DNA from: Minisyncoccota bacterium
GTDB lineage: Bacteria > Patescibacteriota > Minisyncoccia > Phycocordibacterales > UBA9973
Direction: 5' to 3'
Assembly (NCBI GenBank): GCA_036169735.1
Contig: JAVHNX010000036.1
Coordinates: 13,681 to 77,680, forward strand
Length of the DNA stretch: 64,000 nucleotides
In this document: piece after piece, positions 582 through 48,550 of the stretch
How the letters are laid out: every line of letters starts with the position of its first letter
Numbering within the stretch: position 1 is the first letter of the stretch
Program-made: the position numbers and the translations under genes
Notes under the pieces: generated by a model
Seen by the model: the letters and a program-made list of their open reading frames with translations, nothing else
What the model was told of the DNA's origin: nothing
The model's database searches: none

Positions 582-736
582 TATTTGCTTTTGAGGTTTT
601 TGTTGTTATAATTAAATTACCCTAATATTTAGGAAAGTTATAAAAGGTCGCTTTAAATTATCAATTATTATTAATTAAAAATTAAGTGTGTCGCGTCTTA
701 ATTGACGTTTACGCGACATGTTTTCGAAAAAACAAT

Positions 737-1099
737 ATGAAAAATAAATTAATTCCATTAGTCGCTTTTGGTTTAGTCTTAGCTCCTTTTGCTTTCGCTG
801 TAAATACAGTGGGTGGTATCATTATTACAATCGGAGGTCTTCTTAATACTGTAGTACCTATTCTTATTACTCTAGCCGTTATCTATTTCATCTGGGGAGT
901 TGTTTCTTATGTTCTTGCAAAAGAAGAAGAAGCTAAAACAGCCGGAAGAGATAAAATGATCTACGGTCTTATCGGTCTAGTAGTTATCGTTGGTATGTGG
1001 GGTCTAGTTGGTATTATTGCTAATACTTTCGGTATCGGTGTTGGTGGTGGCTCACAGGGCATTACTGCTCCTTGTATCCCAGGAACAATCGGTTGTTAA
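737..1099 (+). CDS. Small secreted two-helix membrane protein, TrbC/VirB2 pilin-like (paralog 3)
   Basis: Start trimmed from ORF-track 686 to the Met opening signal peptide MKNKLIPLVAFGLVLAPFAFA. Two TM helices with charged loop AKEEEAKTAGRDK. C-terminal motif WGLVGIIANTFGI parallels WGLVAIIGNTFGI of paralog 2. Confidence 0.45.
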   Translation: MKNKLIPLVAFGLVLAPFAFAVNTVGGIIITIGGLLNTVVPILITLAVIYFIWGVVSYVLAKEEEAKTAGRDKMIYGLIGLVVIVGMWGLVGIIANTFGIGVGGGSQGITAPCIPGTIGC

Positions 1100-1119: not shown

Positions 1120-1488
1120 ATGAATTTTTTCTTTACAAATGTCGCTTATGCCGCTGGTGAGAGTCTGGATAAATTTATCCAGAACGTCAACAACCTGATT
1201 ATCAATCCGCTAATCGTTTTACTTTTTGCTTTAGCTTTAGCTTATTTTCTTTGGGGAGTATTTGTCTTTATTTCTAATCAAGACAATGAAGAAAAGAAAA
1301 CAACAGGGAAAAGTCACATGGTTTATGGGTTGATAGGGATTACGATTATGATGGGAGTCTGGACTATTCTTTCAATTGTTATGAATACTCTAAACATCTC
1401 CACAACAGAGATCAATCCTAGTACAGGTAAAGTTGATTTAGGTAATTACAATCCTCCGGCAGGGAGTGGTGAGTTGAAGATAAATTAA
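1120..1488 (+). CDS. Divergent pilin-like two-helix membrane protein (paralog 4)
   Basis: Same helix - charged loop (NQDNEEKKTTGKS) - helix layout, conserved Y/WGLIG motif, very short N-terminal leader, longer hydrophilic tail. Confidence 0.35.
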   Translation: MNFFFTNVAYAAGESLDKFIQNVNNLIINPLIVLLFALALAYFLWGVFVFISNQDNEEKKTTGKSHMVYGLIGITIMMGVWTILSIVMNTLNISTTEINPSTGKVDLGNYNPPAGSGELKIN

Positions 1489-12067: not shown

Positions 12068-12076
12068 CAAATAAAA

Positions 12077-12106
12077 AAACCTAAACTTTCGTTTAGGTTT
12101 TTTTAT
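12077..12106 (+). terminator. Rho-independent terminator after clpB
   Basis: aaacctaaac-tttc-gtttaggttt followed by a T-run. Confidence 0.65.
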
Positions 12107-12227
12107 TTGTTGGGAAGGAATTTCTCGCCTTACAGGCGCAGTATACCTTTTGCATACGCTTTCAGTCTATAAGCAAAAGCTTTTCGAGTCCTTCATAAGA
12201 GCAAATAAATTTGCTCTTACTCGACGA

Positions 12228-12268
12228 CACATACAAAAAATCCCCAAACAGAAGTTTGGGGATTTTTA
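12228..12268 (-). terminator. Terminator after tRNA-Tyr
   Basis: Minus-strand hairpin atccccaaac-ttct-gtttggggat followed by a T-run, just 3' of the tRNA. Confidence 0.5.
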
Positions 12269-12273
12269 TGTTG

Positions 12274-12356
12274 TGCGTCGGGAAGGATTCGAACCTTCGA
12301 AGCCCGGAGGCGACAGATTTACAGTCTGTTGTGATAGACCACTCCACCACCGACGC
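12274..12356 (-). tRNA. tRNA-Tyr (anticodon GTA)
   Basis: Reverse complement has acceptor GCGTCGG/CCGACGC, anticodon stem-loop ACAGA-CTGTAAA-TCTGT, long variable arm (class II), T-arm GAAGGTTCGAATCCTTC. Confidence 0.85.
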
Positions 12357-12442
12357 ATGTATACAAAATAACATAAAAATATTTTTTCTGCATCTTTTTA
12401 TTTATTTTGAAAATAAGTTATGGCTTGGTATAATTAGGGGAT

Positions 12443-12811
12443 ATGAATACTAATAAAATAGAAATATTAATAGCGAGGATTGGTTTAGCTTTTCCTTTTA
12501 TTTATGCCGCTATCGCTAGTTTGATTAATCCTTCTTTTTGGCTTGGATTTTTTCCTCCTTTTATGACGAATTTATTACCTCAAGGATTTCTAATTACAGG
12601 CTGGGCAATTTTGCAAATCACGGTTGGTTTATGGCTTGTTATCGGTAGAAAAATTCTAATTCCAAGTATAATTGCTGCGTTTATGCTTGTTGGTATCTTG
12701 ATTTTTAATTACAAACTGTTAGATCTTATTTTTAGAGATGTATCTATCTTGGCAACTGCTGTATTTTTGATTATATATTCCTACAGAGAACAGAATAATA
12801 AAACTCTATAG
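12443..12811 (+). CDS. Small integral membrane protein (4 TM; DoxX-like?)
   Basis: 122 aa with four hydrophobic helices; family assignment is tentative. Confidence 0.3.
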   Translation: MNTNKIEILIARIGLAFPFIYAAIASLINPSFWLGFFPPFMTNLLPQGFLITGWAILQITVGLWLVIGRKILIPSIIAAFMLVGILIFNYKLLDLIFRDVSILATAVFLIIYSYREQNNKTL

Positions 12812-12848
12812 ATATTGACTTTAGGTCAATTTATGTTATCATTTTAGT

Positions 12849-13406
12849 ATGATAATACCAGTAACAATACCGCCGACAATGCCTTATAACGTACCGTTAT
12901 ATTCCCAAATAAGTGATATTTCATCTGTTGCATGGAAGCAAAAAGGCTGCGGAGTAGCAGACCTTGCAATGATAATTGAATACTATAAACCCAACACAAC
13001 CTCAGTTCAAAAGGTTCTTGAGGAAGGTATTGCTGGAGGTGCTTACCAAAAGAACGTAGGGTGGAAACATGACGGGCTGGCAGCCTTGGCTGTAAAACAC
13101 GGCCTAGTCGGTAGAACTTTTGATTTTTCAAAACTAGACAAAAAGAGTGCCTTTATTGAGTTTCAAGATATTATAAAAGAGGGTCCTGCTGTGGCATCAA
13201 TTCATCATGGTTTTAATCCTAAAAGTCCGTATGGTCACCTTGTTGTCGTAACTGGTTTTGACGAAGATTTTATTTATTACAACGATCCAGGAAAACATGA
13301 TGGTATCAGAAAAGTATCAGTTACAGATTTTATGAAGGGTTGGAAGAAAAGACTTATTGTTGTAAGACCTCCTGAAACAAAAATACAAGTAGCATTAGCG
13401 CGTTAA
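12849..13406 (+). CDS. Peptidase C39-like (papain-fold) domain protein
   Basis: Catalytic Cys context KQKGCGVADLAMII and His context SPYGHLVVVTGFDED match the Peptidase_C39_2-type pattern; about 185 aa. Confidence 0.5.
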   Translation: MIIPVTIPPTMPYNVPLYSQISDISSVAWKQKGCGVADLAMIIEYYKPNTTSVQKVLEEGIAGGAYQKNVGWKHDGLAALAVKHGLVGRTFDFSKLDKKSAFIEFQDIIKEGPAVASIHHGFNPKSPYGHLVVVTGFDEDFIYYNDPGKHDGIRKVSVTDFMKGWKKRLIVVRPPETKIQVALAR

Positions 13407-15335
13407 TGCTGTACCAACAAGGCATACTTTTTGCCAAGGTTGGTAGATACTTTTGAAAATTCTTTTTTTAGTTGTACCGTCTTGGTATTTTACAGAATAT
13501 AAAACTTCAGTAGTCACACCGTCGTGTGGTGTCTCTGTGCATTGTGTTTTTCCAACAGGAATATCTTTGCTTTGGATATATTTTGTTTTTGGTGCAGGAA
13601 TTTTGTCGTGTATATATGGTTTTGATATCTCTACAGAGCGGCCATCTTTTTGTCCGTAAAGTTCCATTATAACTTGTTTATTTTCTACTCTTGCTTGTAA
13701 GAGCAGAAAACCACCTGTGTCATTTACAAAACTAAGATCTGGATGAGGGCCGTAGATTGTTGCATCGAGTCCTGGTGGATTATAATAACCAATAACAAAA
13801 CGGTGATTCATTCTTTCTGTAATAGATAATCCAGCGTTAAGAGCTAAACGAAAAAGGGTAGTAGCAACTTGGCATAAACCTCCTCCAAATTCTTTAGTGG
13901 TTTTATTTTCTTTGATTACCGTTTCTTTTACATAACCTTTTTTTCTGGTAACGGAACCAATAGAAGATACTGTGGAAAATTCTGCACCTGGGGCTATTAA
14001 TATTCCATTGATAGCAGCGACTCCTATTTTTATATTATGTTCTCGATCTTTACTACTCCCATTAAAACTTGTACGTATTTCCCCAACTAAATCCCTTATT
14101 TGATATTTTGATATTGTCTCTTTTGTTATTTTAGGCTCAACCTGAATAGTTTCAATAGGTAAATATTGGATATTATTTAGGGTATCTAAATTCATTTCTG
14201 ATTCATGAATTATTTTTTCAATTTTTTGTACAATGTTTTCTATATCTATGATGTTGCCAGGTTTACCTGGAGCTATTTCAATCAGTTTTCCATTTTGAAT
14301 TTCAAAACGGCTATTTTGGGGTGGGTTATTAATAAATTTAGTAACTGTTGTACTAAAATAATCGTTTAGTTTTGTGTTGTCAATATCGATTTTGCCTTCT
14401 TTGTTTATTGTCAGCCATGTTACAAGCTTTGGTCCTGCTATTTTCCATTCGTGTCCTTTATATTGAAATACAAAATTTGTTTTTTGTGAAAAGTTTTCAG
14501 CAAAAACTAAAAATGGACTTAGATCTTCTTGTGTTATTGTAGGAATGTCTATTTCTGTCTTGAAAACTGTAGAAGATGTGTCAAATTGATTTAATTTTTT
14601 TTCTAAAATATTAAGAATTTCTTCTTTATCTATTGTTTCTCCTGTCTCTTCTTTTAAAATAGAAATTTTATTTTCAGTAGATGAAAATCTTGCCGGTAAA
14701 TTTTTCTTCAAAAAACCAGAAAGATCATTTTCAAGCAATGAGTTAACTGCTTCATTTTGAATAGAAATAGAAAACTTGAAATTTTTTCTTACAAACAGGA
14801 GAGAAAATTGTTCTTTTAGTCTGCGGAATATATTTTTTTCATGTCCCCAAGCATAAGCTTCTTTTAGGTCATTTTCCCATTCATCAAGCGTAAAGTATTC
14901 CACAGAATTATCTGAAGTTAATCCTGTTGTGGATATTGGTATATTTATATTTTGAATTCCTTTGGATGTTTCAAAACTTACATTTAATCCATTTTTTTGT
15001 AGCTCTTCTGCTTTTTCTTTAAAATGACCGAGTGCTTCATCATAAGTCTGACCACCGATAGATTCACTACCAATAAAAACACCTGGATAAAACCGGTCGT
15101 TATACTTTGTTTCAAAAGCTATGAATGCCCATATTCCTATGAGTAATGGTAATAATAAAAATAATAAGCCCAAAAATGATAATCCAAAGGCAACAAAAGG
15201 AGGAATAGATTCCTTTGTTTTTTCTATTTGTATTTTATTTACATCTTTAGGATGGTGTTTTTTCTTGAAGTGTTTATGTGGAAAGTGTTTAAACATTTCT
15301 GTATTATAGGACTTTGTAGATGATTTTACTATCAC
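13395..15335 (-). CDS. VanW-family protein with N-terminal TM anchor
   Basis: C-terminal region GGGLCQVATTLFRLALNAGLSITERMNHRFVIGYYNPPGLDATIY is the VanW-domain signature; 646 aa with a single TM near the N-terminus. Confidence 0.6.
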   Translation of the reverse strand: MIVKSSTKSYNTEMFKHFPHKHFKKKHHPKDVNKIQIEKTKESIPPFVAFGLSFLGLLFLLLPLLIGIWAFIAFETKYNDRFYPGVFIGSESIGGQTYDEALGHFKEKAEELQKNGLNVSFETSKGIQNINIPISTTGLTSDNSVEYFTLDEWENDLKEAYAWGHEKNIFRRLKEQFSLLFVRKNFKFSISIQNEAVNSLLENDLSGFLKKNLPARFSSTENKISILKEETGETIDKEEILNILEKKLNQFDTSSTVFKTEIDIPTITQEDLSPFLVFAENFSQKTNFVFQYKGHEWKIAGPKLVTWLTINKEGKIDIDNTKLNDYFSTTVTKFINNPPQNSRFEIQNGKLIEIAPGKPGNIIDIENIVQKIEKIIHESEMNLDTLNNIQYLPIETIQVEPKITKETISKYQIRDLVGEIRTSFNGSSKDREHNIKIGVAAINGILIAPGAEFSTVSSIGSVTRKKGYVKETVIKENKTTKEFGGGLCQVATTLFRLALNAGLSITERMNHRFVIGYYNPPGLDATIYGPHPDLSFVNDTGGFLLLQARVENKQVIMELYGQKDGRSVEISKPYIHDKIPAPKTKYIQSKDIPVGKTQCTETPHDGVTTEVLYSVKYQDGTTKKRIFKSIYQPWQKVCLVGTALTR

Positions 15336-24838: not shown

Positions 24839-25867
24839 ATGTCAACAATATCATTTAAACCAAAACAAGTAACAAAGAAAATAACTTCACATCTTCAGGA
24901 TCGTGCGAGCGATGTTATAATGAATCGTTTTGGTTTGACTACTGATGCTCAACGTAAAACTCTAGAAGAAATCGGTAAGAAATACAGTATCACACGAGAA
25001 CGTGTTCGACAGATTGAAGATGCCGCTTTGGCTTCAATCAAGAAATCTGATGCTTATAAAGCAGAACAGGTTACTTTTGATGAGATAAAACAATTGATTC
25101 ATTCTCTTGGTTCAATCGTTGCTGAACATGAATTCTTATCTTCAATATCAAAAGATAAAGCTACCCAGAACCATATTCATTTTTATATGGTTTTAGGTGA
25201 TTCCTTCAAAAAACATCGTGAAGATGATCATTTCCAAACACGTTGGAGTATTGACGATGAAATGGCTTCTAAAGTCCATGATTCTCTAAAAAAACTTTAC
25301 TCAAGTTTGAGTGACTCAGATCTTGTTCCTGAAACTGAAATGATTAAAAAGTTTTTTGATCAAATGAAAGATGTTTCTGAACAGTTCAAAAATGAAGAGA
25401 TGGCAAAAAGATGGTTAACTATTTCAAAAACTATTTCTAAGAATCCTCTTGGAGAGTGGGGAAAATCAACATCACCAAATATTCATACTCGTGGAGTAAA
25501 AGATTATGCCTTTTTAGTAATGAGAAAACATGGAAACCCTATGCACTTCCGTGAAGTAGCTGATTCTATTTCTAAAACTTTTGGAAGAAAGACTCACTAC
25601 GCAACTTGTCATAATGAACTTATTAAAGACCCTCGTTTTGTCCTCGTTGGACGTGGAATGTATGCTCTTGCAGAATGGGGCTATAAAACAGGAATTGCAC
25701 GTGAAGTTATTCGTGATATTCTAAAAAGAGAAGGACCACTTTCTAAAGAAGATGTAGTAGAAAGAGTAATGAAAGAAAGATATTTTAAAAAGAATACTAT
25801 TTTAGTAAATCTACAGAACCCAAAATACTTCAAGAAGAACAAAAACGGACTTTATACTTTAGCTTAA
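24839..25867 (+). CDS. Putative transcription factor: sigma-70 region-4-like HTH (N-terminal) plus HARE-HTH-like winged helix (C-terminal)
   Basis: N-terminus EEIGKKYSITRERVRQIEDAALASIKK resembles the sigma region 4.2 signature. C-terminus PMHFREVADSISKTF...IKDPRFVLVGRGMYALAEWGY matches the HARE-HTH pattern known from RNAP delta subunit N-termini. Confidence 0.45.
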   Translation: MSTISFKPKQVTKKITSHLQDRASDVIMNRFGLTTDAQRKTLEEIGKKYSITRERVRQIEDAALASIKKSDAYKAEQVTFDEIKQLIHSLGSIVAEHEFLSSISKDKATQNHIHFYMVLGDSFKKHREDDHFQTRWSIDDEMASKVHDSLKKLYSSLSDSDLVPETEMIKKFFDQMKDVSEQFKNEEMAKRWLTISKTISKNPLGEWGKSTSPNIHTRGVKDYAFLVMRKHGNPMHFREVADSISKTFGRKTHYATCHNELIKDPRFVLVGRGMYALAEWGYKTGIAREVIRDILKREGPLSKEDVVERVMKERYFKKNTILVNLQNPKYFKKNKNGLYTLA

Positions 25868-26061: not shown

Positions 26062-27315
26062 ATGGTTGATTCAATAGTTTATTTTTCTTCGTATATTTTT
26101 TCGGTAGTTTGGCCCTTTGTTGGGTTCGCACTCCTTGCTCATTTCGCATGGCTTTTTTGGCATCACTATGTAGAACATGATTTCATTGCTGGTATTGATT
26201 GGGTTCTGCTTGAAATAGTTCCTCCAAGAGACGTATTAAGATCGCCTAAGGCAATGGAATTATTTTTCACTAACGGACTTTATTCCTTAAGTAATAAGGG
26301 ATTTCTTGAAACGTACTGGCTCGGAGCAGTTCAATTGTGGTTCTCACTTGAGATTGTTTCTATTGGAGGTCAGGTTCATTTTTATCTTCGAGCCCCATCC
26401 CGAATGAAGGGTTTAATCGAGACTCAATTGTATGCACAGTATCCTCAAGCACAAGTAAAGGTAGCAGAGGATTATACTTTAGCTGTTAATAAAATATCTC
26501 CTGAAAGTGGGTGGGATCTTTGGGGGTGCGAATTTACTTTAGTAAAACCTGATGCATACCCTATTAAAACTTATGTTGATTTTGGATTAGATAAAGACCC
26601 TAAAGAAGAATTCAAGGTTGATCCGATTTCTCCGGTTATAGAACTTTTTGGTTCAATCGAAAAGGGTGAACAAGTATGGATGCAAATAGTTATAGCGCCT
26701 TCACAAAAAAAATTCCACACTCATGGCACAAGATCAGAACACCATGGATGGGTTGAAGAATCAGAACACGTAATGAAAGAGCTTACCGAAAAATATACCA
26801 AAGGCGAAGGTGAATCTTCATTTAAATTATTGCCAAAATGGTTGGACCCTGTTTTAGAAGGTATGACTAAAAAAAGCGCCAAGGTTGGGTTCGATACAGG
26901 AATAAGAGTTTGTTATGTGGCAAAGAAAGAAAATTTTCAAAACAATACCAAGCGTAATCTTCGTTTAATTTTCCGCCAGTATGAGTCAGCATCTTTGAAT
27001 AGTTTTAAGAGAGTGAATACAACAAGTTTTAGTCATTTTTGGCAATATACTGCTACTTCTCTTTTTAGATTTAAAGACAGAATGCTTGAAGAGTACAGGG
27101 AGAGAGCTTTCTTTTACCCACCTCTTATACACCATATTCCAATTCCTTTTCCTGTTTCATTATTTTTTCCAAAATATAGTCATCCAAATATTTCGGTTCT
27201 TAACACTGAAGAGTTGGCTACTATTTTTCATTTTCCAGGTCAGATATTACAGGTTCCTACTCTTGAACGTATTGAATCAAAAGAGGCAGCTCCTCCTTCT
27301 AATCTGCCTATATAA
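26062..27315 (+). CDS. Hypothetical membrane-anchored protein (two N-terminal TM helices, large soluble domain)
   Basis: 417 aa; no motif recognized; directly upstream of mltG. Confidence 0.35.
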   Translation: MVDSIVYFSSYIFSVVWPFVGFALLAHFAWLFWHHYVEHDFIAGIDWVLLEIVPPRDVLRSPKAMELFFTNGLYSLSNKGFLETYWLGAVQLWFSLEIVSIGGQVHFYLRAPSRMKGLIETQLYAQYPQAQVKVAEDYTLAVNKISPESGWDLWGCEFTLVKPDAYPIKTYVDFGLDKDPKEEFKVDPISPVIELFGSIEKGEQVWMQIVIAPSQKKFHTHGTRSEHHGWVEESEHVMKELTEKYTKGEGESSFKLLPKWLDPVLEGMTKKSAKVGFDTGIRVCYVAKKENFQNNTKRNLRLIFRQYESASLNSFKRVNTTSFSHFWQYTATSLFRFKDRMLEEYRERAFFYPPLIHHIPIPFPVSLFFPKYSHPNISVLNTEELATIFHFPGQILQVPTLERIESKEAAPPSNLPI

Positions 27316-39652: not shown

Positions 39653-39686
39653 TAAAAAATCTCACATAACTGTGAGATTTTTTATT
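39653..39686. terminator. Bidirectional terminator between grpE (+) and the PaaX-like gene (-)
   Basis: aaaaatctcaca-taac-tgtgagatttttt: hairpin flanked by an A-run and a T-run. Confidence 0.6.
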
Positions 39687-40257
39687 TCTTGAAAGTATCA
39701 AATAAAAACTTTTTAGTTTCTTCGTCGATGAATTGAGTTTTGATTATCATCATCTCAGTAGTGAGCTCTAAATCTTTTTTAATATTTTCAAAAAGATGTT
39801 CATAAGGATAAGGGGAGATCCAAGCAGAATTTTTTAGACATACGAACCCAGCTTTTTTTAATAAATAGCGGAGAGACCCGCGTTCACTTTTTCGGGTCTC
39901 TGGTAAATCTAATAAAATAATTCTCCAATATCCATCCCAGGAAGTATCGACGAGAGTAGTATCACTATCGAGCTTTAAGCTATTTATTTTCTTTTTTCCT
40001 TCTTTTGTTAATCGAGCGTAATCATTCTGACCAGAGGAAATATTCTCTATTAGACCAGCTTCACGAAGGCCTTTTAAAGAGCGTGTGATGGCGTAGGACA
40101 CTTTTAAATCTGCTTTACTTATATTGTTATATAAAGGCTCCATGTCAAGGTTAAGCCTTGACATTTGTTGGCTTAATTCAGGTAGGGAAATAGCTGTTTT
40201 TTCACCTAAAATTTTGAGTATTTTCTTGGAATAGTCGGGTTTAGTTGACATATTCAT
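39682..40257 (-). CDS. PaaX-like transcriptional regulator (N-terminal wHTH, C-terminal PaaX_C-like domain)
   Basis: C-terminal WDGYWRIILLDLPETRKSERGSLRYLLKKAGFVCLKNSAWISPYP fits the PaaX C-terminal pattern (W.G.W.......PE..R..R..LR..L...GF..L..S.W..P). Contains the family-1 hairpin insert encoding MSRLNLDM. Confidence 0.4.
   Translation of the reverse strand: MNMSTKPDYSKKILKILGEKTAISLPELSQQMSRLNLDMEPLYNNISKADLKVSYAITRSLKGLREAGLIENISSGQNDYARLTKEGKKKINSLKLDSDTTLVDTSWDGYWRIILLDLPETRKSERGSLRYLLKKAGFVCLKNSAWISPYPYEHLFENIKKDLELTTEMMIIKTQFIDEETKKFLFDTFKK
40142..40164. repeat. ATG..CAT hairpin element (family 1) inside the PaaX-like CDS
   Basis: atgtcaagg-ttaag-ccttgacat; same element as 8123-8145 and 57884-57906. 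Confidence 0.7.
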
Positions 40258-40308
40258 ATATTATACTATATATTGGCTTTTGACAAGCATTTCGTGGTCA
40301 CGAAAAGC

Positions 40309-40336
40309 TTGCTAAAAATAATGGGGTGTGTATAAT
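40309..40336 (+). promoter_or_regulatory. Putative sigma70-type promoter of dnaK
   Basis: TTGCTA-16 nt-TATAAT, about 180 nt upstream of the dnaK ATG. The leader contains hairpin ctggcg-gagctt-cgccag at 40379-40396. Confidence 0.4.
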
Positions 40337-40519
40337 TGTCTATGTTCATTAAAATTAATCTTTTTATAAAGCAATCTGTCTGGCGGAGCTTCGCCAGCGA
40401 ACTGCTCGTCGCTCAAGAAAATAATAAATGGAATACCATTTTTATTTTCTAAGCTCCTGTGCAAGACTTTCTAAAAAAATTAATTTTAATTTACCTTATA
40501 AACTTAATAAAATAAAATT

Positions 40520-42436
40520 ATGGCAAAAATAATAGGAATAGACTTAGGTACAACAAACTCAGCGGTCGCTATCATCGAAGGTGGTGCGCCAAAAATAATA
40601 GAAAATATTGAAGGTGCTCGTACGACTCCTTCGGTAGTTTCTGTTGCAAAAAATGGAGACAGACTTGTCGGTCTTTTAGCAAAAAGACAAGCGGTCACAA
40701 ATCCTGAAAATACCATCTATGGTATCAAGCGTTTTATGGGTCACAATTTTGAAGATCCAGAAGTACAGAAAGATTTAAAGAATGCTTCTTTTAAAATTCA
40801 GAAAGGTGCAAATGGTGGAGTAGAAGTTAAAATTGGAGATAAGTGGATGCGTCCAGAAGAAATTTCTGCGATGATTCTTTCTAAAATTAAAACAGACGTG
40901 GAAGCAAAGATCGGTGAGAAGATCACTGAAGCGATTATTACTGTACCTGCATATTTTAATGACACACAAAGACAAGCAACTATTGATGCGGGTAAAATTG
41001 CTGGCCTGACTGTAAAAAGAATTATCAATGAACCGACAGCTGCAGCATTGGCTTATGGTTTGAACTCAAAGAAAAATGAAAAGATTGTAGTCTACGATTT
41101 CGGAGGCGGAACAACTGATATCTCTGTTCTTGAAGTTGGTGATGATGTTATCGAAGTTAAATCTACTGATGGTGACAGTCACCTTGGTGGACGTGATATC
41201 GATCACAAAATTATAAATTGGATTGCTGACGAATTTAAAAAGACTTCCGGTGTAGATGTAAGAACTGATGCATTGGCATTGCAGCGTCTTGATGAAGCTG
41301 CAGAAAAAGCAAAAATCGAACTCTCAACAGCTATCGAAACTGAAATAAATATTCCTTTCATTACTTCCACCGCAGCTGGCCCTCAGCACTTGTTGTTGAA
41401 AATGACTCGTGCTCAATTGGAGTCTATCGCTGACGAATATATCACTCGTTCAATAGATATTGCAAAGCGTGCAGTTGCAGCTTCTGGTTTTAAAATCGAA
41501 GAAATAAACGAAATCATAATGGTCGGAGGACAAACCAGAATGCCAAAAATTGTCGAAGAAATAAAGAAACTATTTGGTAAAACTCCAAACCTTACAATCA
41601 ATCCTGATGAAGTTGTTGCTCTTGGTGCTGCTGTTCAAGCAGGAGTATTGCAAGGTGATGTGCGTGATGTCCTTCTTCTTGATGTTATTCCTCTTTCCTT
41701 GGGTATTGAAACACTTGGAGGAGTTGCGACAAAACTTGTAGAAAGAAACACAACTATCCCTTCTTCAAAGTCACAAACATTTTCAACTGCAGCTGACAAT
41801 CAGACTTCTGTCGAAATACACATCGTGCAAGGTGAACGTCCAATGGCTTCCGATAACAAATCTCTAGGAAGATTTATCTTAGACGGTGTTCCTCCAGCTC
41901 CTCGTGGTATGCCACAAGTTGAAGTAACTTTCGATGTTGATGCCAATGGTATTTTGAATGTTACTGCGAAAGAAAAAACTAGTGGTAAAACTCAGACTAT
42001 CAGAATCGAAGCTAGTTCTGGGTTGAAACCTGAAGATATCAAAAAAATGCAAGAAGATGCAGAGCTTCATGCTGATGAAGATAAAAAGAAAAAAGAAGTC
42101 GCTGATGCAAAGAACACAGCTGACATGACTATCTTTACTGCAGAGAAAGCATTAAAAGATAATGAAGGAAAAATTTCAGAAGAAACAAAGAAAGGTGTTG
42201 AAGAAAAAATAACAGCATTGCGTGGAGTAAAAGAAGGTTCAGACATAGAGGCAATAAAGAAATCTATAGATGAACTTTCCAGTGAAATGTCTAAAATTGG
42301 TGAAGAAATGGTAAAAGCATCTTCCAAAGTAGATGATGCTGGTGCACCACCAGTAGAGCCAAAAGAAGAAGCTTCTACTCATGAAGCTGGTTCTAAGGAA
42401 GGTGAAACTCCATCCGCTGACGAAGCTGCAAAATAA
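40520..42436 (+). CDS. dnaK: Chaperone DnaK (Hsp70)
   Basis: [18 protein letters not shown] equivalent ([13 protein letters not shown]), substrate-binding domain and acidic C-terminal lid; 638 aa. Confidence 0.95.
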
Positions 42437-42546
42437 TATAAATATTGCGAAGGACAGTCTTCCGTAGAAAGTAAAAATCCTCTCCGACTTTGGTTGTAGG
42501 GAATTTTTACTTTCACCTATTTTTAATTTTTGCTATAATTCATTTT

Positions 42547-44661
42547 ATGGAGAATCCTAAAATACCAATCAATAAAGATATGACATATATAGGTCAGACG
42601 ACCTTTAGAGATAAGAATCAGATCTTTGGTATGAAGCGCAGAGATAGACGTCAGCACGTATATGTTCTTGGAAAATCTGGTACTGGTAAATCTGTGCTAC
42701 TTTCCAATATGATTGTTCAGAACATTCAAAACGGAGATGGTGTTTGCGTTGTTGATCCTCACGGAGAATTAGTTGAAAGTGTTTTACAATCTATTCCAAC
42801 TGACCGTATCAAAGATGTTATTTATTTCAACCCAGCTGATACGGATTACCATATAGGCTTTAATGTTATTGAAATTCTAGATCCAAAATATAAACATTTG
42901 GTGGCTTCAGGCTTGATGGGAATTTTCACTAAGATCTGGGCAAATGCTTGGTCTGCTCGTATGGAATATATTTTAAATAATACAATCTTGGCATTGTTGG
43001 ATACTCCAGGTTCGACTCTTCTTGGTATTCCAAGAATGTTAGTGGACAAAGAATATCGCAAAAAAATAATTGAAAATTTAAAGGATCCAGTCATTAAAGC
43101 TTTTTGGATACATGAGTACGAAGCTTGGAATGAAAAATTTAGAAATGAAGCTATTGCTCCGATTCAGAACAAAGTTGGACAATTTCTTTCTTCTTCTATC
43201 ATTAGAAATGTTGTAGGTCAATCAATGAGTACCATTAATGTTTTTGATATCATGAATGAAGGTAAAATTTTCTTGGTGAACGTTTCCAAGGGACGTATTG
43301 GTGAAGATAATTCCGCATTGCTTGGAGGTATGATTATTACCAAGATCCAGCTCGCTGCAATGGAGCGTGTGCGTATTCCTGAAGATGAAAGAAAAGACTT
43401 TTATTTATATGTCGACGAGTTCCAGAACTTCGTGACTGATTCTTTTGCCAGTATTTTGTCTGAAGCTCGAAAATACCGATTGAATCTAACTGTTGCTCAC
43501 CAGTACACAGCTCAGCTCGTGATTGATGGGTCTTCGGCAGTGCGTGACGCTGTCTTCGGCAACGTCGGTACGATGATTGTATTTCGAGTGGGTGCTGATG
43601 ATGCACTCTTTTTGGAAAAAGAATTTGAACCAGAATTCACTCCACAGGATATCGTGAACTTGCCGAACTATCGTATTTATTTACGTTTGATGATTGATGG
43701 TATTGGTTCACGTCCATTTTCTGCAAAGACTTTGCCTCCAATAGCAAAAAATCCAGATACTCAAGTTGAAGATAAAGTTATCAGTATGTCTCGCGCACTT
43801 TACTGTAAAAAGAAAGAAGTAGTTGAACAAGAAATAAATGATTGGAGTGGTATGTCTATCGGGAATATTGTCAGTACCAGTCCTATTAGTAATGTTGAAA
43901 AATTCCCAGCTGTTTGTTCTAATTGTAAAAAGGAAACTTCAGTACCATTTAAGCCTGAACCAGGACGACCGATTTATTGTAAGGATTGTATTGCAAAAAT
44001 AAAATCTGGAGAAATAAAGCCACTTCCACAACCAGCTCCTGTTAAAGAACCAATAAATGAAGTTAAAGTAGAACCAGTAAAGTCTGGAATTCTTTCAACA
44101 CTTACAAAAGTTTTAAAACCCATTATTCCGATTATTCCTATTCGTGCTCCATCAGAAATTAAGCGAAATGATTCTGTAGAATCAAAAGCTTTTACTAAAG
44201 CTCCGACTGTTCCTGTTGTTTCAGTGCCTCCAGTTCAAAAAGAAGCCCCAAGGCCATTTATTACTCGTCCTATACCAGCCCCAGTAAAACCTACAGAAAA
44301 TACAGCTTTGAGAGATATTTTAAATAAGACTTTGTCTGAGAGTAAAGTTCTTGAGAAACTTATTGTAGTACCAGAGGTAAAAGAAATTAAAATTCCCGTA
44401 CCACCTCCTGCAATGTCATTGAGTGATTTAAAAAGAACAAATCCTATATCAACAAATTCTCTAAATAATAATGATAGATCTGCAAGTGCTGAAGATATGA
44501 ATAAACTTAAAAACTTTATTTTTGAAAAAGTACCCACAGTATCACAAGAAAAAAAAGTTGAGCCGGTGAGCGAGGAAGTAAAAAAAGAAATTCCAGTCCC
44601 AACACCTCCAAAAAATATAAAAGAAGTGCCTGAAGATGTGTTAAAGAAGATTTTAGAATAG
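42547..44661 (+). CDS. FtsK/HerA-superfamily P-loop ATPase related to T4SS coupling proteins (TraG/VirD4/TraD-like), with C-terminal zinc ribbon and Pro-rich tail
   Basis: Walker A VLGKSGTGKS, VVDPHGE, Walker B LYVDEFQNF, ARKYRLNLTVAHQYTAQL (T4CP/HerA arginine-finger region). CSNCKK...YCKDC zinc ribbon, then PxP-rich low-complexity tail. No N-terminal TM. Start set at the second Met (MENPK) after the -10 TATAAT at 42533. Confidence 0.5.
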   Translation: MENPKIPINKDMTYIGQTTFRDKNQIFGMKRRDRRQHVYVLGKSGTGKSVLLSNMIVQNIQNGDGVCVVDPHGELVESVLQSIPTDRIKDVIYFNPADTDYHIGFNVIEILDPKYKHLVASGLMGIFTKIWANAWSARMEYILNNTILALLDTPGSTLLGIPRMLVDKEYRKKIIENLKDPVIKAFWIHEYEAWNEKFRNEAIAPIQNKVGQFLSSSIIRNVVGQSMSTINVFDIMNEGKIFLVNVSKGRIGEDNSALLGGMIITKIQLAAMERVRIPEDERKDFYLYVDEFQNFVTDSFASILSEARKYRLNLTVAHQYTAQLVIDGSSAVRDAVFGNVGTMIVFRVGADDALFLEKEFEPEFTPQDIVNLPNYRIYLRLMIDGIGSRPFSAKTLPPIAKNPDTQVEDKVISMSRALYCKKKEVVEQEINDWSGMSIGNIVSTSPISNVEKFPAVCSNCKKETSVPFKPEPGRPIYCKDCIAKIKSGEIKPLPQPAPVKEPINEVKVEPVKSGILSTLTKVLKPIIPIIPIRAPSEIKRNDSVESKAFTKAPTVPVVSVPPVQKEAPRPFITRPIPAPVKPTENTALRDILNKTLSESKVLEKLIVVPEVKEIKIPVPPPAMSLSDLKRTNPISTNSLNNNDRSASAEDMNKLKNFIFEKVPTVSQEKKVEPVSEEVKKEIPVPTPPKNIKEVPEDVLKKILE

Positions 44662-44761
44662 TTATACATATACATGGGAGTTTCCTATGTAGTTGCAATC
44701 TTCACTAGAAATAAAAAATTATTATCTATTTTAAAACATAAAAATGTTATAATATTTCGGT

Positions 44762-45748
44762 ATGGTATTAAAAAAGACACTAAAAAAGAAAGATGTTGTT
44801 ATTTACCAAGCCAAAAATGGAGCTATTGAACTTCGTGGTGATTTTTCTCGTGAAACTGTGTGGGCTACTCAGGCGCAGATTGCTGATGTTTTTCAGACTG
44901 AAAGATCTGTTGTGACTAAGCATATAAGAAATATTCTTAATGATAAAGAACTTAATGCTAATTCAGTATGTGCAAAATTTGCACATACTGCAGATGATGG
45001 AAAGGTTTATCAAGTACAATTTTATAATCTTGATGTTATTTTAGCTGTTGGATATAGAACAAGTTCAAAGAAGGCTATTGAATTTCGTCAGTGGGCAACA
45101 AAAACGTTACGAAGCTATATCGTAGATGGTTTTGCAATAAATAAAAACCGAATTGCTAAAAATTATGAACATTTTTTAAATGTTGTTGATGATATTAAAA
45201 AACTTTTGCCAGCTGAATCTACGGTTAATCCAAAAGATGCTATAGAACTCATATCACTTTTTGCTGATACTTGGCTTTCTTTGGATGCTTATGATCGAGA
45301 AATTTTATCAAAAGGAAAGCTTACAAAAAAGAAAGTTAACATTACTTCCGAAAAAATTTCACGAGATTTATTCGAGCTTAGAAAAATTCTTATTGAAAAA
45401 GGTGAAGCGACAGATATTTTTGGTCACGAAAGAAATGTTGGTTTTGTGTCGGGAATAGTTGATAATGTAATGCAGTCATTCGGAGGCAATGAACTTTATC
45501 CAACAGTTGAAGAAAAGGCTGCACATCTTTTGTATTTTATGGTAAAGAACCATCCATTTACTGATGGTAATAAACGTTCAGGAGCTTTTGCTTTTGTTTG
45601 GTTATTGAAACAGGCAAATATTCTTGATATTCAAAAATTAAGCCCTTCAGCCCTGACAGCATTAACTGTGCTTGTGGCAGAAAGTGACCCAAATCATAAA
45701 GATAAGATTATTAAACTCATTTTGAATCTTATTTCAAAGAATAATTAA
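44762..45748 (+). CDS. RhuM-family N-terminal domain fused to Fic/Doc domain
   Basis: N-terminus VVIYQAKNGAIELRGDFSRETVWATQAQIADVFQTERSVVTKHIRNI matches the RhuM family. C-terminus has the Fic motif HPFTDGNKRSG. Confidence 0.7.
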   Translation: MVLKKTLKKKDVVIYQAKNGAIELRGDFSRETVWATQAQIADVFQTERSVVTKHIRNILNDKELNANSVCAKFAHTADDGKVYQVQFYNLDVILAVGYRTSSKKAIEFRQWATKTLRSYIVDGFAINKNRIAKNYEHFLNVVDDIKKLLPAESTVNPKDAIELISLFADTWLSLDAYDREILSKGKLTKKKVNITSEKISRDLFELRKILIEKGEATDIFGHERNVGFVSGIVDNVMQSFGGNELYPTVEEKAAHLLYFMVKNHPFTDGNKRSGAFAFVWLLKQANILDIQKLSPSALTALTVLVAESDPNHKDKIIKLILNLISKNN

Positions 45749-45805: not shown

Positions 45806-46462
45806 ATGAAAAAAGATTATTACAAAACTTTAGGGGTAGAAAAAGGCGCATCGAAAGAAGAGATTAAAAAAGCTTTTCATAAGTTGGCGCATAAATATCA
45901 TCCCGATAAAAAAGAAGGCGATGAAGCTAAATTCAAAGAGGTAAATGAAGCTTATCAGACTCTTTCTGATGATTCCAAGCGTTCAAAATACGACCAATTT
46001 GGTCCTGGTTTTGAAAACATGCAAGGCGGTGGGCAAGGACAAGGCGGATACCAACAAGGTGGTTTCAGTGGAGGTTTTGAAGGTTTCGATTTTTCTGGTT
46101 TTCAGAATGGAGGAAGTGCAGATTTTGACTTAAATGATATTTTTGGTGAATTTTTTGGTGGTGGTTTTCGTACTCAGAGAACTCCACGCGGAAGAGATAT
46201 GAAGACTGAATTATCTATTTCTCTTGTTGATTCTATTTTAGGTTCAGATAAAAAAATATCCATTAGTGGACATGACGATATTGTAATAAAAATTCCAGCT
46301 GGAATTCAGAGTGGTCAGACCATAAAAATGACTGGTGGTGGAGAACAAATAAAAGATGGAAAGCCTGGAGATTTGTATATTCTTATTACGATAAAAATAC
46401 CAAGCAAGATTTCCAAGAAAGCTCGTGAACTTCTAGAAGAACTGAAAAAAGAGGGAATTTAG
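45806..46462 (+). CDS. J-domain co-chaperone (DnaJ-like, lacks the Cys-rich zinc-finger domain)
   Basis: J domain with HPD (YHPDKK), Gly/Phe-rich linker, single C-terminal beta domain; no CxxCxGxG repeats; 218 aa. Confidence 0.65.
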
Positions 46463-46536: not shown

Positions 46537-47175
46537 ATGCTTAAATTAACAGCGAAAAGTAGAGATATTAAAGAAGACTTAAAAGAAATGCGAAAAGCAG
46601 GTGAATTACCCGCTGTATTTTATGGAGCAGACAAAAAAACTACTTCCATCTCAGTATCAAAAATAGAATTTAAAAAAGTTTGGTTGAAAGCTGGAGAATC
46701 TTCTACAGTTGAAATCACAACACCAGAAGGAAAAGTGAATGTTCTAATTCATGATGTTCAGGTTGATCCTGTTACAGATGAACCTATACACATAGATTTC
46801 TTGGCTATCGATATGAACAAGAAGATTACTGTTCATGTTCCTTTTGAATTCGAAGGTGTTTCCGAGGCAGTTAAAAATGGTTCTGGAACCCTTGTCAAAG
46901 TAGCACACGAAATCGAAGTCGAAGCTCTTCCAAAAGATCTTCCACACAATATCGTTGTTGATATTTCTAAACTTAAAACTTTACACGACCAGGTTCTTAT
47001 TTCAGATTTGAAAGTCCCAGCTGGAGTTACAATTCTTGGTGAAGTTGATGAAGTTATTGCTTCTATTGCTGTTCAAGTAGAAGAAGTAGAAGAAGAAGCT
47101 TCCCTAGTTGATCTATCTGCAATCGAAGTTGAAAAGAAAGGAAAGAAAGAAGAGGAAGCTACTCCTGCAGAATAA
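46537..47175 (+). CDS. rplY: Ribosomal protein L25 / general stress protein Ctc
   Basis: L25 N-terminal beta-barrel (RKAGELPAVFYGADKK..) plus Ctc-type C-terminal extension with acidic tail. Confidence 0.8.
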   Translation: MLKLTAKSRDIKEDLKEMRKAGELPAVFYGADKKTTSISVSKIEFKKVWLKAGESSTVEITTPEGKVNVLIHDVQVDPVTDEPIHIDFLAIDMNKKITVHVPFEFEGVSEAVKNGSGTLVKVAHEIEVEALPKDLPHNIVVDISKLKTLHDQVLISDLKVPAGVTILGEVDEVIASIAVQVEEVEEEASLVDLSAIEVEKKGKKEEEATPAE

Positions 47176-47206
47176 AAATAAATCAAATTATGTTATAATA
47201 GAAGCT

Positions 47207-48550
47207 ATGATACGGAAAATGGTCATGGCTTTTATTTTTGCTATATTTTTGTTTTCAAGTTTTTCAGTGAATAAAACATTCGCTGTTTTTGATTGTTTAA
47301 CACTTTCTATTTCCTCTTCTCAGACAGACAAGGATTACTGTCGTAGTGAATTAAGCCAAATAGAACAACAGCTGACTGAACTCTTAGCAAAACAAAAAGA
47401 ACAACAGAAACAGACTGGTACACTGAAAGGTGATGTTAATTATTTGACTAGCCAGATTAATGCTTTAAAAACCAAAATCAAAGCCCGTGCGTTAGTTATT
47501 GCACAATTAAAAGTTTCTATTAGTGATAAGGTAAAAACAATAGGGACTCTATCGGATAAAATAGATCGTGAGCATGAGTCTCTTGCTCAGCTTTTACGTA
47601 ATACCAATGAGTTTGACAATGAAAATATGATACATTTGATTCTTTCTGATCAATCCGTTTCAGATTTTTATAGTGATTTAGAATCTTATGCTTCTATTAA
47701 ACAAGCTGTAAAAGCTTCCGTTGAAGAAATTACTGGAGTAAAACAAGAAACAGAAATACAAAAGAAAGATTTAGAGATAAAACAAAATGCAGAAATTGAT
47801 GCCAGAGATGAACTGCAAAGTGCACAGAAAAAAGTTGTTCAATCAGAAGCGGACAAGAAAAAGTTATTAGCTATTTCAAAAGAAAAAGAGTCTGCTTATC
47901 AAAAACTTGCTGCTGATAAAAAAGCTAGAGCTGACAAAATTCGTTCTGCACTTTTCGCTTTGCGTGATACTAAAGCAATTCCTTTCGGAACAGCTTTGAA
48001 GTATGCTCAAGAAGCCGAGAAAAAAACTGGGGTACGCCCAGCATTCGTTCTTGCTATTCTTACCCAGGAGACAAACTTGGGTGAAAATATTGGTACTTGT
48101 AATCGTGTGACTGATTCAGCTGCAAAAAATTGGGTAAATATTATGAAACCAAGCCGTGACTTGGAGCCATTTAAGAGAATCACTTCGGCTTTGGGGATAA
48201 ATCCAGAAGGCACTCCGCTTTCTTGTCCTTGGAATGGTGGTTATGGTGGAGCGATGGGCCCTTCACAATTTATTCCTTCTACGTGGGAACTTTATGCATC
48301 AAAAATTGCGAAAGCACTTGGTATAAGTGGAATGCCAAATCCATGGGAACCTAAGGATGCTTTCTTCGCATCATCTATTTATTTAGGAGAATTAGGTGCC
48401 TCAAAAGGAGGATTTACTGCTGAACGTACTGCTGCTTTGAAATATTATGCTGGCGGTAATTGGAATAAAAAGGCTAATGCTTTCTATGGTGATGGTGTTA
48501 TGAGAAAAGCTAGTCTCATCCAAGCTGATATAGATTTGCTTTCAAACTAG
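47207..48550 (+). CDS. Secreted coiled-coil protein with C-terminal MltB-like lytic transglycosylase domain
   Basis: Signal peptide MIRKMVMAFIFAIFLFSSFSVNKTFA, about 220-aa heptad-rich region, then ILTQETNLGENIG (catalytic Glu) and GGAMGPSQFIPSTW (family-3 LT signature). Confidence 0.55.
   Translation: MIRKMVMAFIFAIFLFSSFSVNKTFAVFDCLTLSISSSQTDKDYCRSELSQIEQQLTELLAKQKEQQKQTGTLKGDVNYLTSQINALKTKIKARALVIAQLKVSISDKVKTIGTLSDKIDREHESLAQLLRNTNEFDNENMIHLILSDQSVSDFYSDLESYASIKQAVKASVEEITGVKQETEIQKKDLEIKQNAEIDARDELQSAQKKVVQSEADKKKLLAISKEKESAYQKLAADKKARADKIRSALFALRDTKAIPFGTALKYAQEAEKKTGVRPAFVLAILTQETNLGENIGTCNRVTDSAAKNWVNIMKPSRDLEPFKRITSALGINPEGTPLSCPWNGGYGGAMGPSQFIPSTWELYASKIAKALGISGMPNPWEPKDAFFASSIYLGELGASKGGFTAERTAALKYYAGGNWNKKANAFYGDGVMRKASLIQADIDLLSN

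Follow-up and report, generated by a model that had tools for sequence, protein, structure and literature searches.

What are the genes for a coupling-protein-like ATPase and a RhuM-Fic protein doing between dnaK and dnaJ in a member of the Patescibacteria? A large part of bacterial diversity belongs to this phylum, and no function is known for most of its conserved lineage-specific genes. A type IV secretion system (T4SS) gene and a Fic toxin gene in a chaperone operon resemble a mobile island; of the two, only the Fic gene is a newcomer. The locus was analysed within a stretch of 64,000 nucleotides, hereafter called the window.

The dnaK-dnaJ interval

The open reading frames and the Pfam matches of the flanks confirmed the original prediction that two genes stand between dnaK and dnaJ. 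ATPase1 comes first and RhuM-Fic second, both on the plus strand. The features of the region were as follows.

39682-40257, minus strand: PaaX_M-domain gene between grpE and dnaK, absent from the original prediction
40520-42436, plus strand: dnaK, the upstream flank (HSP70, E 4e-240)
42512-42539, plus strand: promoter-like site TTCACC-16-TATAAT with an upstream TG (consensus scan only)
42547-44661, plus strand: ATPase1, a soluble TrwB/VirD4-fold P-loop ATPase of 704 aa
44762-45748, plus strand: RhuM-N plus Doc-type Fic gene, 328 aa (Pfam)
45806-46462, plus strand: short dnaJ, the downstream flank, 218 aa (Pfam DnaJ and partial DnaJ_C)

The short dnaJ had no zinc-finger domain, DnaJ_CXXCXGXG of Pfam not being matched, and alignment with a 359-aa relative indicated an internal deletion. 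The promoter-like site ends 8 nt before the ATG of ATPase1 and may act as its promoter; no Shine-Dalgarno sequence was visible before this ATG. A longer reading frame from a TTG at 42490 was rejected because M1 of the ATG start was near-invariant in 52 homologues. Upstream of dnaK, an 11/12 palindrome at 40285-40310 was considered as a candidate operator and dropped as a conserved one, because its core was present in 0 of the 95 fetched loci.

The two genes had been taken for an insertion, to be checked by flanking repeats and by composition. No direct repeats bounding the genes were found, and the direct or inverted repeats around RhuM-Fic were only short AT-rich chance matches. An Rfam search of the window returned tRNAs only, all far from the ATPase1/RhuM-Fic region. 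GC content, GC3, and codon usage were native for ATPase1, and the GC content and codon usage of RhuM-Fic were likewise not anomalous.

The ATPase and its membrane partner

The core of ATPase1 spans aa 1-445, with the Walker A motif GKSGTGKS at aa 42-49 and the Walker B residues D290 and E291; G42, G45, G47, K48, D290, and E291 were invariant in 81 sequences. Four Pfam families matched above their thresholds: TrwB_AAD_bind (46 bits, cut-off 20.5, E 4.6e-12, aa 30-349), DUF87 (36.4 bits, above the gathering score), T4SS-DNA_transf (28.1 bits, cut-off 20.1), and TraG-D_C (24.5 bits, cut-off 22). An AlphaFold2 (AF2) model of aa 1-495, built from an alignment of 81 diverse sequences, had a TrwB-like overall fold in which an all-alpha domain interrupts the nucleotide-binding domain. 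Foldseek comparison of this model with the PDB placed TrwB at the top (E 5e-13, TM 0.55-0.65), followed by Cagbeta and DotL, and HerA structures scored below both TrwB and VirB4. ATPase1 was judged to have no membrane anchor because no 19-residue segment reached a Kyte-Doolittle value of 1.6 (maximum 1.44). The type IV coupling protein (T4CP) assignment and the missing anchor of the original prediction thus held, and its length of 705 aa was corrected to 704 aa.

Two further elements follow the core.

43900-43998, plus strand: CxxC-x17-CxxC zinc ribbon of ATPase1, aa 452-484 (Cys 457, 460, 478, and 481)
44032-44658, plus strand: Pro/Lys/Val-rich low-complexity tail of ATPase1 (composition)

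The ribbon was matched by zf_Tbcl_2 (PF23477; Pfam, aa 452-484, 50.2 bits, cut-off 27) and by TIGR04272 (CxxC-x17-CxxC; NCBIfam, 51.6 against a cut-off of 36). Its four cysteines were invariant in 52 homologues, and the ribbon was found in 67 of 85 orthologues. For M. mazei members of the family, zinc binding has been reported (PMC12704099). Ribbon and Pro-rich tail had both been predicted correctly, except that the ribbon does not end the protein: about 220 aa follow it, the last 214 containing 33 Pro and 28 Lys. The tail was predicted to be disordered (full-length AF2 with 52 close homologues, pLDDT only 49) and was only 38% identical among close relatives. It closes with the clade-conserved motif EVPEDVLKKILE (44623-44658), which is kept in loci L001-L018 of the relatives and replaced by other end motifs outside them.

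More than 8000 homologues of ATPase1 were found; the best 120 of them were all full-length and 62-93% identical, and those with a source name were almost all from Patescibacteria. In a representative library, 6,498 cluster representatives matched at E<=1e-30, and a relative was present in at least 599 GTDB species-representative genomes. Phages carried further homologues, and so did plasmids of Bacillus, Streptomyces, haloarchaea, and Sulfolobus. Within the clade of the window, the mean core identity of ATPase1 (83%) was comparable to that of DnaK (81%) and RpoA (85%), those of L13 and S9 being 76% and 70%. All 14 loci with a core identity of at least 78% (L001-L014) had dnaK directly upstream of ATPase1, and dnaJ lay downstream wherever the contig was long enough. 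These findings show that ATPase1 is inherited vertically across the phylum.

The partner of ATPase1, overlooked in the original prediction, was found elsewhere in the window. When the N-terminal extensions of fused ATPase1 homologues were searched against the window with tblastn, they matched a gene about 15 kb upstream of ATPase1 (E 6e-40 to 6e-33), here called MemN.

24839-25867, plus strand: Sigma70_r4 plus HARE-HTH gene, upstream neighbour of MemN (Pfam)
26062-27315, plus strand: MemN, 417 aa (tblastn with the N-terminal extensions)

By hydropathy, MemN has one hydrophobic segment, at its N-terminus (aa 5-33). Of 80 species-representative loci, about 55 have a MemN gene of about 420 aa directly upstream of ATPase1 on the same strand, and the stop codon of the first often overlaps the start codon of the second. 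Fusions of the two account for 58 of the 150 best-scoring cluster representatives, and phrog_5156 spans both halves. The MemN profile matched the N-terminus of Bacillus phage G gp156 (3e-22) and that of a 913-aa B. subtilis plasmid protein (NZ_OX419581; 5e-15), and the ATPase profile matched these two proteins at E-values of 1e-47 and 3e-34. The plasmid protein is annotated DUF87, and its gene is followed directly by one of the relaxase family and by the transfer genes TcpD/TcpE. Homology thus indicates that the N-terminal half of the ATPase1 machine is encoded by a gene of its own, MemN. The MemN family gave no credible Pfam or NCBIfam match at E<=1, apart from one sub-threshold DUF5321 in one homologue, and a profile search of the PDB gave no match. 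Because MemN has no recognisable family, it is gene fusion and adjacency that point to its probable role as an anchor or adaptor.

The Sigma70_r4 plus HARE-HTH family precedes MemN in 42 of the 80 loci and also in L093 and L095. The distant locus L095 has the order HTH-MemN-ATPase1, and the close relatives L093 and L094 have TypA-HTH-MemN-MltG without an ATPase. MemN of the window is still at the ancestral locus HTH-MemN-...-mnmA-alaS; therefore, only the ATPase gene has moved, from the MemN operon into the dnaK-dnaJ interval of a Nomurabacteria-like clade. In most members of this clade, ATPase1 occupies the interval together with ATPase2, a paralogue found only in L002, L004-L016, L018, L019, L022, L026, L027, and L029; L003 is uninformative in this respect, as its contig stops directly after ATPase1. 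ATPase1 is the cytoplasmic motor of a split type IV coupling-protein-like translocase, the only membrane anchor being that carried by MemN. Its distribution shows this machine to be a near-universal core component of Patescibacteria, evidently passed on by vertical inheritance. An ATPase conserved to the level of DnaK is accordingly one half of a split protein, the other half being an anchored, undescribed family.

The RhuM-Fic gene

The second gene had been described as a RhuM-N plus Fic protein such as usually occurs in restriction/defence or mobile settings, and Pfam confirmed both domains. Virulence_RhuM (PF13310) matched with 80 bits against 33.7, over profile positions 1-87 of 252 only, and Fic with 50.8 bits against 24.

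45551-45583, plus strand: Fic motif HPFTDGNKRSG, from aa 264 of RhuM-Fic

This motif was kept in 114 of 120 homologues. PDC-S23 of PADLOC matched the full length (aa 9-327, E 5.7e-107), the PHROG match was a Doc-like toxin, and the PDB match was the death-on-curing protein 9vzc (E 2.4e-5); TIGR01550 stayed below its cut-off (30.2 against 38.65). A literature search on PDC-S23 found nothing. The Doc subtype was assigned by the motif HxFx(D/N)(A/G)NKR, which we take to be diagnostic of Doc. In the Doc motif, Lys stands in place of the second Gly of the AMPylating Fic motif. As RhuM-Fic carries GNKR rather than GNGR, it is predicted to be a kinase-type Fic protein. The inhibitory motif (S/T)xxxE(G/N) was absent from the protein, and no Phd-like antitoxin gene lay beside it, the neighbours being ATPase1 and dnaJ.

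RhuM-Fic adjoined ATPase1 only in the window and in L001, a 93%-identical relative, where it occupies the slot that holds ATPase2 in other relatives. Its homologues, 73-89% identical, stood in unrelated contexts, many of them defence islands, with toxin-antitoxin, DpnI/TIR, or type I restriction-modification genes, and those in L086-L089 never adjoined ATPase1. In the species-level lineage of the window, ATPase2 is absent from the slot and a RhuM-N plus Doc-type Fic gene is there instead. The gene is a recent lineage-specific insertion of a candidate defence gene; across the clade, the ATPase is conserved in the interval and the pair is not. Of the insertion originally proposed for both genes, the RhuM-Fic half was upheld and the ATPase half gave way to vertical inheritance. 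The RhuM-Doc protein would be an independent single-gene candidate for defence or toxicity, functionally unconnected with both the ATPase and the chaperones.

Function of the split machine and comparison with known systems

The original prediction had offered three explanations: a degraded conjugative element, a toxin or defence module, and a translocase for host interaction coupled to the pilin-like genes at the window start. It is highly improbable that both genes are left over from a conjugative or mobile element that integrated into the chaperone operon. T4CP-family domains and Fic/Doc genes are typical mobile-element cargo, and plasmid and phage homologues exist; against this, the ATPase is at the site in 14 of 14 clade loci and occurs phylum-wide, the borders show no relaxase, integrase, att-like repeat, or tRNA, the composition is native, and ATPase1 and RhuM-Fic have different histories. 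It can hardly be credited either that the pair is a defence or toxin module akin to HerA plus effector. Weak PADLOC matches of the ATPase to mad8 (4.9e-16) and HerA, together with the PDC-S23 match of RhuM-Fic, speak for such a module; however, the pair is confined to the window and L001, PDC-S23 is a stand-alone candidate, and the constant partner of the ATPase is MemN, not an effector.

The pilin-like genes of the third explanation are three tandem VirB2-like T4SS pilin genes, matching PF18895 (T4SS_pilin, cut-off 26.6) with 30.2, 30.5, and 33.2 bits and lying 41 kb from ATPase1.

195-581, plus strand: VirB2-like T4SS pilin gene
686-1099, plus strand: VirB2-like T4SS pilin gene
1120-1488, plus strand: VirB2-like T4SS pilin gene

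No other T4SS genes, and no relaxase, VirB4, or VirB6, were identified among the window ORFs inspected, which lay outside 33-36 kb. A host-interaction translocase linked to the pilin array is possible. ATPase1 would form a ring on the membrane via MemN, and its ATP hydrolysis would deliver a protein or nucleic acid substrate to an envelope channel, most likely a chromosomal monoderm-type T4SS with these pilins. The zinc ribbon, the disordered tail, and the conserved terminal peptide may constitute a module that recruits substrates or adaptors. This reading as a whole, a vertically inherited split T4CP-like core machine with a relocated ATPase, coupling to a T4SS, and an independent RhuM-Fic, seems to us rather probable.

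The family is almost certainly that of the orphan VirD4-type homologues, about two per genome, described in passages of the survey by Quinonero-Coronel et al. (2025; PMC12102498): 5,713 such homologues occurred in 2,918 of 3,035 Patescibacteria genomes, only 148 of them near virB4, and their function was left unassigned. Those passages are silent on a split or fused N-terminal partner, on the zinc ribbon, on the paralogy of ATPase1 and ATPase2, and on the placement between dnaK and dnaJ; the role left open there is here attached to a concrete, testable object. A literature search on CPR bacteria with TraG and DnaK found nothing. According to the same source (PMC12102498), T4CP homologues occur in 96% of genomes and VirB4 in 80%, and in Southlakia epibionticum the t4cp homologue is dispensable, whereas the T4SS genes are essential; for these reasons, the ATPase may not work with a T4SS, and the survey authors themselves raised exaptation. 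MemN and ATPase1 (with ATPase2 where it occurs) might then be a self-contained housekeeping membrane translocase for DNA movement in uptake or segregation, or for protein movement or unfolding, an alternative that seems possible but less probable.

Besides the excess over VirB4 and the rarity of virB4 nearby, conservation on a par with DnaK and RpoA agrees with such a motor, as do its usual neighbours across loci, which are secD, secF, and an HTH gene rather than T4SS genes. In the clade, moreover, ATPase genes and genes for Cys-rich proteins are interspersed among grpE, dnaK, and dnaJ; a role in protein movement or unfolding would explain this location with chaperone genes and Cys-rich zinc-ribbon proteins, and that with secD/secF elsewhere. 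However, because synteny in the clade extends over the entire S13...rpoA...grpE...dnaJ region, the conserved position amounts to background synteny only. Among about 70 more distant loci, ATPase1 was near dnaK only in L039 and L052, 3' of dnaJ and not between dnaK and dnaJ. Of the homologue contexts that can be characterised, the nearest is a conjugation locus, and no substrate is indicated. It is likewise conceivable, although doubtful, that MemN and the zinc-ribbon ATPase (joined by ATPase2 in certain lineages) are an undescribed T4SS-independent translocase of the patescibacterial core, derived from a monoderm conjugative T4CP and essential for housekeeping. It could serve the import or handling of host macromolecules, or protein export and quality control, and the Nomurabacteria-like clade would have drawn the ATPase into the grpE-dnaK-dnaJ region with a Cys-rich zinc-ribbon family.

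Several known systems were compared with the two proteins. RhuM-Fic shares the HxFxDGNKR motif and the Fic fold family with Doc (P1 death-on-curing) and the RhuM-N plus Fic architecture with BifA of Streptococcus equi. ATPase1 was rejected as a VirB4, AAA_10 being below threshold (19.4 against 27.5) and the CagE_TrbE_VirB N-domain not detected, and as a HerA helicase (helicase_HerA 14.5 bits against 970, no Pfam HerA N-terminal domain); no NurA, Sir2, or similar effector gene adjoined it. The C-domain of DptH (DndH) was also compared, and no dnd genes were seen at the locus.

With the T4CPs (TrwB of R388, VirD4, TraD/TraG, Cagbeta, and DotL), ATPase1 has in common the RecA-like domain with its inserted all-alpha domain, the four Pfam families, and the invariant Walker motifs. 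It missed the NCBIfam cut-offs of the named T4CP models SXT_TraD (52 against 366), conj_TOL_TraD (37 against 648), CD1115 (35 against 250), and TraD_Ftype (28 against 521). Whereas T4CPs carry an N-terminal transmembrane domain in the same chain, the anchor of ATPase1 is the separate MemN, and ATPase1 has the ribbon and the predicted disordered tail in addition; it is chromosomal, vertically inherited, and conserved to the DnaK level, with no relaxase or T4SS genes nearby. The fused Bacillus plasmid and phage proteins (NZ_OX419581, phage G gp156, SPO1-like phages, and phrog_5156) are homologous to both MemN and ATPase1. The NZ_OX419581 copy sits at the position of a coupling protein. These fused proteins are single polypeptides without the zinc ribbon, are carried on mobile elements, and are only 25-30% identical.

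The interval between dnaK and dnaJ

Open reading frame and Pfam analysis confirmed the two plus-strand genes predicted within positions 42547-45748, with dnaK on one side and a short dnaJ on the other.

40520-42436: dnaK, upstream flank
42547-44661, plus strand: ATPase1, 704 aa, with Pfam and NCBIfam matches
44762-45748, plus strand: RhuM-Fic, 328 aa, with Pfam RhuM and Fic matches
45806-46462, plus strand: short dnaJ, downstream flank

ATPase1 had been predicted as a 705-aa protein without a membrane anchor; it has 704 aa, and zero hydrophobic segments were found in its polypeptide. The expected CxxC...CxxC ribbon is present but internal, being followed by a tail of about 220 aa rather than forming the protein end. 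The grpE-dnaK-dnaJ series is indeed interrupted by the two genes, but the original prediction did not give a further break between grpE and dnaK, formed by a minus-strand gene with a PaaX_M (Cas2-like) domain.

The PaaX_M gene (39682-40257) is divergent from dnaK across an intergenic region at 40258-40519, and was seen in the 14 clade loci with an ATPase core at least 78% identical (L001-L014) wherever the contig extends upstream of dnaK. Its product may be a local chaperone regulator. An 11/12 palindrome at 40285-40310 abuts a promoter-like site; its core was absent in all 95 fetched loci. TATAAT boxes with a preceding TG were observed at 42534-42539 for ATPase1 and 44747-44752 for RhuM-Fic, ending 8-10 nt before the ATG, and no Shine-Dalgarno sequence was visible ahead of either ATG. 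This arrangement suggests separate, nearly leaderless transcripts.

The dnaJ product (218 aa) comprises a J domain, a G/F region, and one C-terminal beta-domain, without the CXXCXGXG zinc-finger domain. DnaJ is about 360 aa in relatives, except in L012 (218 aa) and in the 93%-identical relative L001 (217 aa). Downstream, after L25, a plus-strand gene at 47108-48550 encodes a 480-aa protein with an N-terminal signal/anchor, a long coiled-coil, and an SLT_2 lytic transglycosylase domain, which is kept in L001.

Vertical inheritance of ATPase1 and separate history of RhuM-Fic

ATPase1 passed the gathering thresholds of five Pfam models, TrwB_AAD_bind, DUF87, T4SS-DNA_transf, TraG-D_C, and the treble-clef zinc finger zf_Tbcl_2, and its CxxC-x17-CxxC domain exceeded the NCBIfam cut-off. 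The ribbon cysteines are residues 457, 460, 478, and 481, and the tail that follows is rich in Pro, Lys, and Val. An AlphaFold model of residues 1-495, based on an alignment of 81 diverse homologues, had a pLDDT of 90.4, and the Walker A and B residues were invariant in 81 of 81 ATPase sequences. Foldseek against PDB ranked TrwB (E 5e-13) above Cagbeta and DotL, followed by HerA and VirB4, which places the fold in the VirB4/coupling-protein group; within it, the Pfam sequence profiles prefer the coupling-protein side. A survey of Patescibacteria reports 5,713 VirD4-type homologues in 2,918 of 3,035 genomes, just 148 of them near virB4, and its authors state that exaptation of these homologues 'cannot be ruled out' (PMC12102498). 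The ATPase1 gene almost certainly belongs to this set.

More than 8000 homologues came up in a database search. Each of the best 120 was full-length and 62-93% identical, and those with a named source were almost all labelled Patescibacteria. An exhaustive search of cluster representatives gave 6,498 relatives at E<=1e-30, and at least 599 species-representative genomes encode one. In every locus of L001-L014, dnaK lies directly upstream of ATPase1, and dnaJ lies downstream wherever the contig is long enough. Mean core identity across these loci was 83% for ATPase1, compared with 81% for DnaK, 85% for RpoA, 76% for L13, and 70% for S9. The GC content, GC3, and codon usage of ATPase1 were inside the range of the neighbouring housekeeping genes, and no integrase, relaxase, tRNA, or flanking repeat was found at the borders of the dnaK-dnaJ insert region. 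The fixed position, native composition, and lack of border repeats contradict a degraded conjugative element or insertion as the origin of ATPase1. Of the two outcomes named beforehand as refuting the insertion idea, vertical inheritance holds for the ATPase, which is conserved after dnaK; the other, an ATPase unrelated to the TraG/HerA clade, does not hold, as ATPase1 is a member of that clade.

The two-gene observation is real, but the mobile-island reading fails for the ATPase, and the newcomer is RhuM-Fic. The pair is not conserved as a unit, since RhuM-Fic adjoins ATPase1 only in the window and in L001 (93% identical). As predicted, Pfam and motif analysis identified a RhuM-N and Fic protein, consisting of the first third of the RhuM profile and a Fic domain with HPFTDGNKRSG. 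Over its full length it matched PDC-S23, a candidate single-gene defence family in PADLOC (E 5.7e-107); further matches were to a PHROG family of Doc-like toxins and to a death-on-curing protein of solved structure. Its motif carries Lys in place of the Gly of AMPylating Fic proteins, a Doc signature that is linked to kinase activity in P1 Doc. BifA, the sole studied protein found with the RhuM-Fic architecture, promotes phosphorylation of its target (PMC6529018). Neither an adjacent antitoxin gene nor an internal inhibitory motif was found. RhuM-Fic is a candidate defence gene that entered by an ordinary insertion, and its history is separate from that of ATPase1.

The membrane half and relocation of the ATPase gene

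Among the 150 best cluster representatives, 58 were proteins of 750-1130 aa carrying an extension of 350-460 aa ahead of the ATPase core. This extension starts with hydrophobic helices and matched no Pfam family. It is homologous to a separate ORF directly upstream of the ATPase in about 55 of 80 species-representative loci, where stop and start codons often overlap, and to a window ORF at 26062-27315 (E 6e-40), hereafter MemN. MemN has a single N-terminal hydrophobic segment (aa 5-33), and no relatives were found in Pfam, NCBIfam, or PDB. Of 85 ATPase1 orthologues, 67 carry the zinc ribbon, but all 58 fused forms lack it.

The function-unknown PHROG family phrog_5156 spans both halves. Fused homologues are encoded by Bacillus phage G (gp156), SPO1-like phages, and a B. 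subtilis plasmid of 63.6 kb, and 268 Bacillus plasmid records contain ATPase homologues. On the B. subtilis plasmid, the 913-aa fused protein occupies the coupling-protein position, with a relaxase-family gene and the TcpD/TcpE transfer genes directly downstream. The phage G gene (L091, 3861-6338) adjoins the 'VirB-like' gp155, and the large Bacillus phages with the fused protein include JL, CP-51, and SPO1-like phages. The fusion of the two genes and their conserved adjacency argue strongly that MemN and the ATPase act as one protein.

The usual Patescibacteria order is secD-secF, a Sigma70_r4/HARE-HTH gene, MemN, and the ATPase, often with mnmA and alaS downstream. The window retains the HTH gene (24839-25867), MemN, mltG, an exonuclease gene, mnmA, and alaS, without the ATPase in that array. 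Two close relatives likewise lack the ATPase at the MemN locus, whereas one distant locus has it in place, so in the window's clade the ATPase gene shifted by about 15 kb, to a site between dnaK and dnaJ. The plus-strand Sigma70_r4 and HARE-HTH gene precedes MemN as a conserved neighbour in 42 of 80 loci, mostly after secD and secF; its product may regulate, or be part of, the MemN-ATPase unit.

The last 10-12 residues of ATPase1 sort into clade-specific motifs across L001-L085. The window protein has the C-terminal peptide EVPEDVLKKILE; the motif EVPEDVLRKILE occurs exactly in the loci without adjacent MemN (L001-L018), and the other ends are of the 'LxxALKxxL' or '(I/V)KPGExxKF' type.

In most clade members, a paralogue, ATPase2, lies between ATPase1 and dnaJ, about 45% identical, with intact catalytic motifs and without ribbon or tail, together with up to two copies of a Cys-rich protein (about 575 aa, no known family). 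Neither was found within the 64-kb window. The Cys-rich proteins (about 560-590 aa; L002 at 10152-13782, L008, L010, L020, L030, and others) carry CxxC pairs at each end and matched neither Pfam nor NCBIfam; relatives have one to five copies around grpE, dnaK, and both ATPase genes. Synteny in the clade extends over the entire stretch of ribosomal-protein genes, rpoA, grpE, and dnaK, so the conserved ATPase position needs no functional tie to chaperones. Outside the clade, the ATPase was near dnaK in just 2 of about 70 more distant loci (L039 and L052), after dnaJ rather than between dnaK and dnaJ.

Possible partner of the ATPase

In the mechanism proposed here, the ATPase would assemble on the membrane via MemN and push a substrate toward an envelope channel, with the zinc ribbon and the tail bearing the clade-specific terminal peptide as a putative recruiting module. 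The most economical partner would be a chromosomal monoderm-type T4SS. The pilin-like array predicted at the window start was confirmed as three tandem small genes for VirB2-like T4SS pilins, each above the PF18895 T4SS_pilin threshold, an array type known from Patescibacteria T4SS loci:

195-581, plus strand: T4SS pilin
686-1099, plus strand: T4SS pilin
1120-1488, plus strand: T4SS pilin

Further T4SS genes, if adjacent to the pilins, would be expected upstream of the window.

A MemN/ATPase machine working independently of a T4SS is the less likely reading, to which we nevertheless give weight because, according to the survey, the ATPase family is more widely spread than VirB4, which roughly 600 of the assemblies lack, and seldom linked to virB4, and the Southlakia t4cp homologue is reported as dispensable while T4SS genes are essential (PMC12102498). 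The overall explanation, with T4SS coupling as its functional part, appears reasonably probable: confidence is high for the identity and history of ATPase1 and moderate for its role in coupling.

In the survey passages on these homologues (PMC12102498), no description was found of a membrane partner encoded separately, of the zinc ribbon, of ATPase1 and ATPase2 as paralogues, or of the placement in the chaperone region. ATPase1 itself is almost certainly a member of the published class of orphan coupling-protein homologues and is mostly explained by it.
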